A stretch of DNA of 64,000 bases, from sequence record PP658200.1. One strand, written 5' to 3'. This DNA is from Escherichia phage HY126. This document shows, one piece after another, positions 51,207 through 53,526 of this stretch. Under the pieces are notes generated by a model. That model did no database searches. It was given only the letters and a program-made list of their open reading frames with translations, and was not told the DNA's origin. The position numbers were made by a program, and so were the translations under genes. Every line of letters starts with the position of its first letter. The stretch's first letter is position 1.

Positions 51207-51833
51207 TTACTTACGAGTTTTTGCATACTGAGCAGCGTCAGCAGCCAAACGACCTGCCTGACGAAGTTTTTCTTTAATCGCATCGTGAAGTGGTTGAGTA
51301 TACTTCAAACCTTCGATAGTCAAATAAAGACGATAAAGGTCTGGGGTATCAAGGTTGTTGATATGTTGGCCATTACGAAGACTGTTGAATTCACGAACGA
51401 GTGAAGATGTATCGGATTCAATATCACGAACAAGCGAAGATAGTTGTTTATATTTTTTTTCCAGGCTAGAAGTATCAAACTTAAGAGCAGGAGCTTTAGG
51501 AGTTGCTTTTACTTCCGGCTTAGGCTCAGGTTTTGCTATTGCTTTAGGGGTCGCAGGTTTAGGAACGGTAGGAGCAGGTTTTACTTTAGGCGAACCCGAT
51601 TTAGCAGAAACACCGCCACTAACAATATCTTTGAATGCTTTAGAAGCTCTGTAATATTCTTTTTGGCTGGAAGTGTCGATACCATACATGGCTTGAACGT
51701 TTTTGAAAAACTCTGTACTAGTTTTTGTACCAGAAATAGCATCGTAAGCAGCTTGCCATTTCTCTTTTGTCATACGTACACCGGCTTCGGTGATTACTTC
51801 CGTTTCGGCTAAAAATTCATTAAAAGTATACAT
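51207..51833 (-). CDS. Internal-protein-like (leader MYTFNEFLAE) with Lys/Pro/Ala-rich central region
   Basis: ORF track 208 aa; CTS-like leader; SPKVKPAPTVPKPATPKAIAKPEPKPEVKATPKAP low-complexity segment. Confidence 0.6.
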   Translation of the reverse strand: MYTFNEFLAETEVITEAGVRMTKEKWQAAYDAISGTKTSTEFFKNVQAMYGIDTSSQKEYYRASKAFKDIVSGGVSAKSGSPKVKPAPTVPKPATPKAIAKPEPKPEVKATPKAPALKFDTSSLEKKYKQLSSLVRDIESDTSSLVREFNSLRNGQHINNLDTPDLYRLYLTIEGLKYTQPLHDAIKEKLRQAGRLAADAAQYAKTRK

Positions 51834-51868: not shown

Positions 51869-51876
51869 TATTTATA
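51869..51876 (-). promoter_or_regulatory. Late promoter TATAAATA
   Basis: Exact TATAAATA on minus strand ~36 nt upstream of the 51833 ATG. Confidence 0.5.
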
Positions 51877-51877
51877 C

Positions 51878-51906
51878 AAAAAAGCCCCAACCTTTCGGAA
51901 GGGGCT
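51878..51906 (-). terminator. Rho-independent terminator (AGCCCC-loop-GGGGCU + U6)
   Basis: GC stem and six U on the minus-strand transcript, 3' of the ORF-free 51950..52200 region. Confidence 0.7.
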
Positions 51907-51949
51907 ATATACCTTGTCGGGGTTTCCACCTACTAAGGCAAGTGTTTGT

Positions 51950-52195
51950 ACGAAACGCCGGGATTCGAACCCGGTTATTAAGCAGTTGACGCTACTCAAT
52001 ATTTTTAAAAGGCCATATCTCGACCATATCCGAACGTTCCGTCAAAAACGCTACTCGGCTTACGGCAAAGATATTTCCTCGAATCGATAATTCTTTGCGC
52101 CGTTTCTGCTGTGATGTAAGGGGATATTAACAAATCATAAAGATTTATTAAGACCAGTCCTTACTCAGGGAACATCAGTCCGACGACTTGCCGGT
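51950..52195 (-). ncRNA. Candidate stable RNA with tRNA-like 3' end (T4 rnaC/rnaD-like position)
   Basis: ~250 nt without credible ORF; minus-strand 3' end CCGGGTTCGAATCCCGG-CGTTTCG mimics tRNA T-arm/acceptor but no full cloverleaf; several internal stems. Confidence 0.3.
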
Positions 52196-52209
52196 AGCGA
52201 CCCGGCTTC

Positions 52210-52554
52210 TTATTTTGACATATCATCAATTTGTTCTCTACGTCTACGCCATAGATTAATTACTTCATCAACACATTCAGCATTTGGTATATGACGACAA
52301 TAGTATAGTGATTCGCGTTTCTGGAACCGATGTTGTAATGGAATTTCGTTTAAAAGGTCTTTACGGTCAAAGTATTCAAAACTAGTTAACCCGGAACGGT
52401 TTTTAAGAAACTTCCAATGTCCGAATTCATTTTGAAAATAGACATAATCAGCATGCTGATACAGCGAATTAATTAACCTATCGGAAATAACTGTTTCACG
52501 TTCGTTAAAATAAAACGTTAAGTCATGAACTACCAGATAAATATTGCCTTTCAT
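52210..52554 (-). CDS. Hypothetical protein
   Basis: Track ORF trimmed to ATG 52554 with GAGG SD (MKGNIYLVVHDLTF...). Confidence 0.45.
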   Translation of the reverse strand: MKGNIYLVVHDLTFYFNERETVISDRLINSLYQHADYVYFQNEFGHWKFLKNRSGLTSFEYFDRKDLLNEIPLQHRFQKRESLYYCRHIPNAECVDEVINLWRRRREQIDDMSK

Positions 52555-52633
52555 ATTTTCCTCACTTAAAGTTGGTGCCTCTAGAAAGATTTGAACTCTC
52601 ACCATTAACCTTAGAACGATTATATGCTATCCA

Positions 52634-53299
52634 TTACACTATAGAGGCAATTAAATTATTTACAATATCTTCTTTATAAACTTCAGCATAATGAAGTTCA
52701 TATATTTCCCATCCTAATGATTTTATAATATCATGGCGTTCTTTATAATAAGGGGCCAAAATCTTTTTCTTAGGATTGGAGTAATGTTGGTTTCCATTAA
52801 CTTCAATAATAATCTTTTTATCTATTAAAGCAATATCCGTGCAATACGCTCGGTTTTTAACCGGTTGGTATTCTTCAATAAATGAAATTCCGTTTTCTAT
52901 TAATTTAGATTTCAAAAATTCACAAGGCACAGATTTAAATTTTGTATTTTTCTTCCAAGGATGTTTATCAGGGTTTTCATTCAACCATTTTTTCCGAGCA
53001 TTAGATATTTTTATTCTAGATTCCTCAGAGTGTTCTCTACCTAATGAAGCGGCTGACAATTTTTGTCTAGTCTCTTCCGAAATTACTACAGGGACACCAG
53101 TCTTTTTAGATACAACATACTGGTTTAAATTACCTGAAGCTATACGTGCTTTATTCATTGCTGCAATGGCTGATTTAGAACTTTCTTTATACAATTCCAA
53201 TTTAGGGTTGGATTTACACCATCTAGTGTGGTTAGCCATCCATCCTTTAGGTTTATTAGAAATATCAAATTCCATATTACAATGTTTACAAATGCTCAT
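52634..53299 (-). CDS. Freestanding homing-endonuclease-like protein (Zn finger + NUMOD-like repeats + DUF559/Vsr-like nuclease)
   Basis: CKHC...HTRWC; ISEETRQKLSAASLGREHSEESRIKISNARK; IIEVNGNQHY...ELHYAEV; start at ATG 53299 (track start is TTG 53305). Confidence 0.6.
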   Translation of the reverse strand: MSICKHCNMEFDISNKPKGWMANHTRWCKSNPKLELYKESSKSAIAAMNKARIASGNLNQYVVSKKTGVPVVISEETRQKLSAASLGREHSEESRIKISNARKKWLNENPDKHPWKKNTKFKSVPCEFLKSKLIENGISFIEEYQPVKNRAYCTDIALIDKKIIIEVNGNQHYSNPKKKILAPYYKERHDIIKSLGWEIYELHYAEVYKEDIVNNLIASIV

Positions 53300-53309
53300 T
53301 ACCAATTAT

Positions 53310-53373: not shown

Positions 53374-53445
53374 CTGGCGCACTTGGACTCGAACCAAGAT
53401 AAAGGAGTTAACAGCTCCCCGTAATAACCTTTATACGATGCACCA
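53374..53445 (-). tRNA. tRNA-Asn (anticodon GUU), CCA not encoded
   Basis: Hand-folded: acceptor TGGTGCA/TGCGCCA, D-arm with GG, anticodon stem GGGAG/CTCCT loop CTGTTAA, T-arm CTTGG-TTCGAGT-CCAAG. Confidence 0.8.
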
Positions 53446-53451
53446 TTTGTT

Positions 53452-53526
53452 TGGTGACCCTGGCTGGTTTCGATCCAGCTACCTATCAGTTATGAGCTGA
53501 CAGCTCTCCCATTGAGCTACAGGGCC
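53452..53526 (-). tRNA. tRNA with CAU anticodon (Met, or Ile if lysidine-modified), CCA encoded
   Basis: Hand-folded: acceptor GGCCCTG/CAGGGTC, D-arm GCTC-AATGGGA-GAGC, anticodon loop CTCATAA, T-arm GCTGG-ATCGAAA-CCAGC, 3' ACCA. Confidence 0.8.

Follow-up and report, generated by a model that had tools for sequence, protein, structure and literature searches.

Orthologues of the T4 stable RNAs rnaD and rnaC at the 3' end of the tRNA array of Escherichia phage HY126: comparative structure and distribution

The species 1 and species 2 RNAs, two small stable RNAs encoded beside the tRNA cluster of bacteriophage T4, were sequenced from phages T2, T4 and T6 in the 1970s. Host enzymes, RNase P among them, release the two from a dimeric precursor, and species 1 RNA is a classical in vitro substrate of RNase III. 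Laboratory hosts support the growth of T4 mutants that have lost the tRNA region. In the tRNA-like domain of tmRNA, in YrlA modules and in mascRNA, mimicry of an acceptor stem and T arm lets an RNA that is not a tRNA use the tRNA-processing enzymes and gain stability. The T4 genome record lists the two phage RNAs as the T4s001/T4s002 pair (GenBank NC_000866), that is, as two misc_RNA features without a CDS: rnaD, the species 2 RNA of about 119 nt, at 71171..71053, and rnaC, the species 1 RNA of about 139 nt, at 71046..70908.

RNAC has been detected by Northern blot in T4, where both RNAs are classed as late and accumulate as stable species (PMC9697503). Reviews continue to give the function of T4 rnaC and rnaD as unknown (PMC3014915), and no functional study of either was found in the literature searched, Miller et al. 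2003 and the primary papers of the 1970s and 1980s lying outside that search. The only hint of a function that was found comes from the T4-like phage BW1: a single convergent SNP in the rnaD region was reported to make it more virulent on E. coli ECOR34, the authors' relative bacterial growth (RBG) measure going from 0.17 to 0.98, and the authors suggested that the SNP may tune gene expression (PMC12685909). It could act instead via the expression of neighbouring genes.

The window analysed here is a stretch of 64,000 nucleotides from Escherichia phage HY126 (PP658200.1), a T4-like Mosigvirus. A first-pass annotation, made from the sequence alone, had singled out a region of about 300 nt as a candidate stable RNA that looked like the counterpart of the T4 pair. 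The minus strand of this region very probably carries the Mosigvirus orthologues of T4 rnaD (52213..52094) and then rnaC (52087..51949), which form the 3' end of the tRNA array and are followed by a terminator (Table 1). On direct alignment with NC_000866, the stretch 52213..51949 (-) matched T4 rnaD and rnaC over their full length, with 84.3% identity over 120 nt for rnaD and 137 of 139 bases identical (98.6%) for rnaC. The order tRNA-Arg, rnaD, 6-nt spacer, rnaC, trailer and terminator is that of T4, as are the strand, the lengths and the secondary-structure models. Hence, the proposed kinship with the T4 RNAs was borne out; the identity of both RNAs is already known, and the HY126 copy is a near-identical orthologue. 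As for the candidate itself, the locus does match genes for stable RNA, though the 300 nt or so read as a single molecule comprise two predicted RNAs plus a trailer.

Over the stable-RNA stretch the phage is 100% identical to Escherichia phages HX01 and JS09, and similar DNA was found by blastn in 806-814 phage genomes, nearly all from Tevenvirinae of Enterobacterales. A covariance-model search, which the first-pass annotation had proposed as a check, returned 174.7 bits (E = 8e-44) on HY126 DNA for a model built from rnaC homologues. The trailer after rnaC is 76% identical to that of T4, and the nearby tRNA-Arg(UCU) shows 65% identity between the two phages; at 98.6% against only 65% for this tRNA, rnaC is under far stronger constraint than anything else in the locus. 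No second copy of rnaC or rnaD was found within the 64-kb window.

Table 1. Features of the rnaD-rnaC locus and the adjoining tRNA array in the HY126 window
Feature	Position	Strand	Remarks
rnaD (species 2 RNA) homologue	52094..52213	-	About 120 nt; T4 alignment 84.3%; 5' end overlaps the stop codon of the upstream ORF
rnaD hairpin H1	52206..52190	-	Core model
rnaD closing helix P1	52187..52181 with 52102..52098	-	Core model
rnaD helix P2	52174..52171 with 52110..52107	-	Core model; followed by the invariant CCCUG loop
rnaD helix P3	52164..52159 with 52121..52116	-	Core model; followed by the variable apical hairpin
Spacer GAAUUA between rnaD and rnaC	52088..52093	-	6 nt; AAAUUA in T4, of equal length and in the same place
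rnaC (species 1 RNA) homologue, predicted tRNA-like four-way junction	51949..52087	-	139 nt; 137/139 against T4
rnaC acceptor stem	52086..52080 with 51957..51951	-	Fold and covariation
rnaC long arm P2	52079..52010	-	Apical loop UUGACG at 52045..52040
rnaC arm P3	52001..51976	-	Loop CGUCAA at 51991..51986
rnaC T arm	51974..51958	-	CCGGG-UUCGAAU-CCCGG, then CGUUUCG to 51951
Trailer hairpin between rnaC and terminator	51910..51940	-	Fold; kept in T4 and, though rnaC is missing there, in Dhakavirus
Intrinsic terminator of the tRNA/stable-RNA transcription unit	51878..51906	-	GC-rich stem 51906..51883, U tract to 51878; homologous terminator in T4
tRNA-Arg(UCU), nearest upstream tRNA of the same array	52573..52648	-	ARAGORN and Rfam; T4 annotation
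tRNA-Asn	53374-53445	-	ARAGORN
tRNA-Met	53452-53526	-	ARAGORN
114-aa ORF between tRNA-Arg and rnaD	52210..52553	-	Own GAGG ribosome-binding site; no such ORF in T4

The two loci differ in several respects. In T4, rnaD begins 2 nt after tRNA-Arg, whereas in HY126 the 114-aa ORF lies between them, its stop codon overlapping the predicted 5' end of rnaD; the sole Pfam match of this ORF is a weak one to DUF2654 (18 bits). HY126 rnaD has diverged from that of T4 in its apical hairpin, and the 3' end of the RNA reads CAAAG in place of the CACCA encoded in T4 (GCGCAAAG vs GCGCACCA), so that 3' maturation may differ between the two phages. Most relatives end in CACC or CACA, and an encoded CACCA is probably not a defining feature of the rnaD family. 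The RNA boundaries given for HY126 were carried over from T4 and may be in error by 1-2 nt.

The first-pass annotation had seen no credible ORF from 52210 down to 51878, and the longest one there is indeed 58 aa, the curated T4 record likewise holding RNAs and no CDS. The terminator that it had called strong was also confirmed, with a stem AGCCCC..GGGGCU plus a U tract at -16 kcal/mol (z = -3.4); a simple terminator scan missed it because the stem contains an internal loop. At 51869-51876 (-), 2 nt past the U tract, there is a T4 late-promoter consensus, TATAAATA, which stands 36 nt before a 208-aa ORF (51833..51207) without a Pfam match.

For the structure of rnaC, 28 distinct homologues were gathered from GenBank phages, IMG/VR and metagenomes, the sources including Tequatrovirus, Mosigvirus, Karamvirus, Moonvirus, Winklervirus, Tegunavirus and Erwinia phages. 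RNAalifold on 16 of them gave 44 pairs, 16 with compensatory changes, and the HY126 RNA folded alone adopts the same structure (-50.2 kcal/mol, z = -4.55). When the loop-loop pairing described below is included, 96.3% of the alignment cells are paired under the model, against at most 43% with slid partners, and the observed covariation was reached by none of 500 shuffles. The acceptor stem is built from both ends of the RNA as 7 bp, CGAUUCG/CGUUUCG, with two U.U mismatches; it covaries to CGGUUCG/CGUUCCG in Karamvirus and to CGGUCCG/CGGACUG, fully paired, in Tegunavirus. Next come P2, an irregular arm of 70 nt, and, after a 9-nt A/U-rich linker, P3, a 10-bp arm with compensatory changes in 8 of its 10 pairs and a conserved 6-nt loop as its cap. 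The T arm and acceptor-type 3' strand that had been described as perfect are present: the minus strand at 51980..51949 reads ...TAATAA-CCGGG-TTCGAAT-CCCGG-CGTTTCG-TA, a 5-bp stem with the T-loop consensus followed by a 7-nt 3' strand. At the third T-stem pair the alignment has G-C or U-A, and Enterobacter phage EnC15 has A-U. This terminus belongs to rnaC alone, rnaD having no acceptor or T-arm features, and the description of the region as having a tRNA-like 3' end therefore holds for the former RNA only.

It was observed that the apical loop of P2, UUGACG, is the exact complement of the P3 loop, CGUCAA, a complementarity with a chance probability of about 7e-4. In Tegunavirus both loops differ, reading UUGAUG and CAUCAA, so that one C-G pair has become U-A and the pairing is kept, and the loop-loop helix is paired in 100% of the sequences aligned. 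In EnC15 (L024 926-1071) the interior of P2 has been swapped while UUGACG is kept, and P2 contains a perfect 15-nt complement (AAAGTAGTTGACGCT) of the phage's own P3 loop plus 3' strand. Scans of IMG/VR and metagenomes, amounting to 28 distinct sequences, yielded no further kissing-loop variants. The predicted contact is thus well motivated and rests on few independent events, namely one compensatory change and the EnC15 variant.

Taken from these comparisons, rnaC is modelled as a tRNA-derived or tRNA-mimicking four-way junction in which the acceptor stem and T arm have been kept and the other two arms rebuilt. It resembles a canonical tRNA (RF00005) in its 7-bp acceptor stem that runs directly into a 5-bp T stem, its UUCGAAU loop, the four-way junction, its setting in tRNA arrays and a 3' trailer, U-ACA-AA, laid out as N73-CCA. 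In contrast to a tRNA, it has neither a D arm nor a 7-nt anticodon loop and carries instead the 70-nt arm and the 10-bp arm with its conserved 6-nt loop; the junction connectors are 0/9/1/0 nt as against 2/1/4-5/0, two of its loops are complementary and predicted to pair, and a tandem U.U occurs in the acceptor stem of most lineages. The first-pass annotation had been unable to fold the region into a canonical cloverleaf, and this is because, of the parts of a tRNA, rnaC retains just the acceptor stem and the T arm. Among Winklervirus-type copies (L019, L007, L020, L171, and L033 1500-1644 from the Winklervirus Erwinia phage Virsaitis27) the T stem is kept and the T-loop consensus is lost, the loop being UGCAUGC or UGCAUC vs UUCGAAU; hence, tRNA mimicry at the elbow is not universal. 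Overall, rnaC is conserved well above the needs of its helices alone.

The other RNAs with an acceptor and T-arm mimic are more distant, and no sequence relationship of tmRNA, YrlA or mascRNA to rnaC was found. Unlike tmRNA, rnaC lacks a tag reading frame and a G3.U70 pair, and neither ARAGORN nor Rfam gave a tmRNA match for it; unlike YrlA, it has no Ro-binding stem. A tmRNA-like reading of its 5' end (GAUUCGAGG) was supported by no tool and was abandoned.

The core of rnaD was aligned for 20 sequences from at least seven genera, and it is predicted to fold as a hairpin and, 3' of this, a stem of three helices built around a CCCUG loop that is invariant. In order, it consists of a 5' AGAA, H1, P1 (CGUCG/CGGCG), P2, the CCCUG internal loop, P3 and a variable apical domain. 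Under this model 87.9% of the cells are paired, against at most 43% when slid, with compensatory changes in 13 of 25 pairs; since fixed anchors guided the manual assembly of the alignment, these figures lean slightly toward the model. RNAalifold on an ordinary MAFFT alignment gave the same H1, P1, P2 and P3. P2 differs by lineage (UGUU/AGCA, AGYU/AGCU, UUUAAU/AUUAAA or UUGUU/AACAA), and P3 shows covariation at four of its five pairs. Two other pairings were considered and dropped: the P2 register CUGAUGU/ACAGCAG, which is the single-sequence energy minimum and gave way to the register conserved in all lineages, and a pairing of the H1 loop with the GUAGCG motifs of rnaC, for which covariation was absent.

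Judged by their distribution, rnaC and rnaD are independent modules, since each occurs alone between tRNA genes in other genera. The neighbours of rnaC are tRNA-Trp and tRNA-Gly, one on either side, in Karamvirus, Moonvirus and Erwinia phage COW86c, and in Tegunavirus it stands directly before tRNA-Trp; rnaD follows tRNA-Asn and precedes tRNA-Asp in Karamvirus, Jiaodavirus and COW86c. Homologues of rnaD are known from the T4 group and Dhakavirus, with diverged forms in Karamvirus, Jiaodavirus, Moonvirus, Erwinia phages and the Vequintavirinae phage LTH01. In all genera compared, both RNAs lie on the tRNA strand inside the tRNA transcription unit. As rnaC is absent from Dhakavirus, where rnaD is present, and rnaD was not found in Tegunavirus, neither is essential to its lineage. 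Outside phages, neither RNA gave a blastn match in 5,426 E. coli genomes, a search that short antisense seeds would escape, and a scan of GTDB genomes with the rnaD core pattern returned only chance matches in GC-rich bacteria, none of them credible.

Two arrangements were recorded separately. In Dhakavirus and its relatives (L025-L027, L035, L039, L041), rnaD is continued without a break by the sequence that in T4 forms the trailer of rnaC (…GCGCACCGAA joined to CACUUGCC…), a junction that looks like the precise loss of rnaC by clean excision. In Escherichia phage vB_EcoM-LTH01 (L006 1501-1600), the rnaD homologue stands immediately after tRNA-Met in a tRNA array; its ends are of the T4 type and its apical part of the Karamvirus type, and this version is mostly covered in six phage-collection records only. 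The mixed resemblance suggests horizontal transfer between tRNA arrays.

Records of this DNA suggest two other identities for it. Most modern T4-like GenBank records place 'hypothetical protein' CDSs or a 94-nt 'tRNA-Lys' over rnaC and rnaD; RNA features are annotated in only a few (RB55, RB59, RB68, Kha5h, ATK47 and T4), and the HX01 and JS09 records annotate neither RNA. It is highly improbable that the 3' 94 nt are a genuine, unusually long tRNA of the Lys or Sec type with the internal CGGAACG as the 5' acceptor strand. This motif does pair with CGUUUCG over 7 bp with one G-U, a 'tRNA-Lys' is annotated over the stretch in phage 55 and phages G4500/G4507, and the best sub-threshold Rfam match is tRNA-Sec (RF01852) at 51950..52042, with 16.6 bits, E = 6.5 and a cut-off of 47. 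However, the pairing is not kept across genera, with an A.C in Karamvirus and three mismatches in Tegunavirus, and the internal acceptor was rejected for that reason; it is the 5'-terminal strand that covaries with the 3' strand, and the sole candidate anticodon loop is the conserved 6-nt CGUCAA. ARAGORN, which called three tRNAs in the window, Arg(UCU), Asn and Met, found no tRNA or tmRNA in 51878..52213, and the Rfam tRNA model, for which at least 29 bits are needed, made no call there. No Rfam 15 family reached its gathering score over rnaC or rnaD, and a search at permissive E-values brought up the tRNA-Sec match alone. No canonical tRNA had therefore been overlooked, as the first-pass annotation had wished to see checked. 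The rnaC covariance model in turn matches true tRNAs end to end weakly (12-25 bits), and such scores are consistent with a common acceptor/T-arm frame and nothing more. The internal CGGAACG pairing is probably what lies behind the 94-nt annotations and the tRNA-Sec match. That the region encodes small proteins is so improbable as to be almost negligible: ORFs of 42, 47 and 58 aa do overlap it, and many automatic annotations put CDSs there, but these ORFs are short, use TTG starts and match no family, single-base indels occur among close relatives (L017, L002), the variation tracks base-pair covariation and not codon periodicity, and the curated T4 record carries RNAs only.

A function in trans is questioned by two further readings. 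According to one, which we consider very unlikely, the region consists of tRNA genes in decay, or is a spacer or 3' UTR that is merely passive, and has no function of its own; T4 phages with tRNA-region deletions grow on laboratory hosts and Dhakavirus lives without rnaC, as would be expected, yet rnaC is the most conserved element of its locus, compensatory changes keep the helices across genera with loops and junctions invariant, and the positions within tRNA arrays vary, rnaD having even spread to an unrelated phage subfamily. According to the other, which is unlikely, both RNAs are cis-acting modules for processing or stability, directing cuts by RNase P, RNase E or RNase III and shielding the tRNA transcript or the mRNA of the upstream ORF from 3' exonucleases, with no role in trans. 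The RNAs always lie within, or end, same-strand tRNA transcription units, the acceptor/T-arm minihelix of rnaC is the type of substrate that RNase P recognises, and species 1 RNA of T4 is cut by RNase III in vitro. In Karamvirus, however, the copies are internal in the array and not terminal, so that 3' protection cannot be their general role. Moreover, RNase P sites are already available in the ordinary tRNAs, a processing signal would need neither some 140 nearly invariant nucleotides nor a conserved loop-loop contact, and the T4 RNAs accumulate as stable species (PMC9697503). The reading favoured over a purely cis-acting role, tentatively and at somewhat below an even chance, is that rnaC and rnaD are trans-acting, protein-binding RNAs, rnaC being a tRNA mimic. 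The invariance of loops and junctions, together with the loop-loop lock and a spread that crosses phage lineages, suggests that each RNA is recognised by a protein as a three-dimensional object, and these features fit a passive spacer poorly.

By analogy with T4 and from the anatomy of the locus, rnaC and rnaD would be co-transcribed with the tRNAs and the inserted 114-aa ORF by read-through from tRNA-Arg, transcription stopping at 51878. RNase P would cut at the base of the acceptor stem of rnaC and thereby also free the 3' side of rnaD, and exonucleases would then trim the RNA ends, the trailer U-ACA-AA standing where N73-CCA would be. The compact folds would render both RNAs stable. As a trans-acting tRNA mimic, rnaC may conceivably engage a host or phage factor that recognises tRNAs, and both RNAs might perhaps be dispensable in laboratory hosts and important in particular ones. 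A narrower proposal, speculative and unlikely, is that rnaC has a distinct architecture, a tRNA frame in which a loop-loop helix locks together the arms on the D side and on the anticodon side, and that together with the independently mobile rnaD it serves as a decoy for, or a trigger of, host defence directed at tRNAs or sensing RNA. If true, it would account for the near-invariance of rnaC, for its spread through the tRNA arrays of phages and for the host-specific benefit of the BW1 SNP in the rnaD region.

As a discovery the locus is ordinary, and its value lies in comparative additions to a 50-year-old question. These are covariation-backed structures of both RNAs, a testable loop-loop contact in rnaC, evidence for separate modules across Tevenvirinae genera, and the occurrence of rnaD in Vequintavirinae. 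They supply concrete mutants and pull-down baits for a search for function. The structural results are possibly useful to specialists, and the papers of the 1970s may already describe parts of the rnaC fold.

Some observations concern the rest of the tRNA array. A 223-aa ORF at 52634-53305 (-), between tRNA-Asn and tRNA-Arg, occupies the position of the segB homing endonuclease of T4; its Pfam matches to NUMOD3, DUF559 and RAP are sub-threshold or borderline, and it is likely to be an insert of the homing-endonuclease type. The gene for tRNA-Asn lacks an encoded CCA (…GCGCCA-G-UAA), whereas tRNA-Arg and tRNA-Met encode it; as in T4, some tRNAs must therefore rely on the host CCA-adding enzyme. 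In the tRNA arrays of Karamvirus, Jiaodavirus and Erwinia phages there are two more conserved non-tRNA spacers, one of about 135 nt just after the rnaD-like RNA and one of about 160 nt between tRNA-Asp and tRNA-Met (L028 1278-1410; L003 610-750 and 838-985; L029 1277-1400 and 1487-1650), and these may be additional unannotated stable RNAs.
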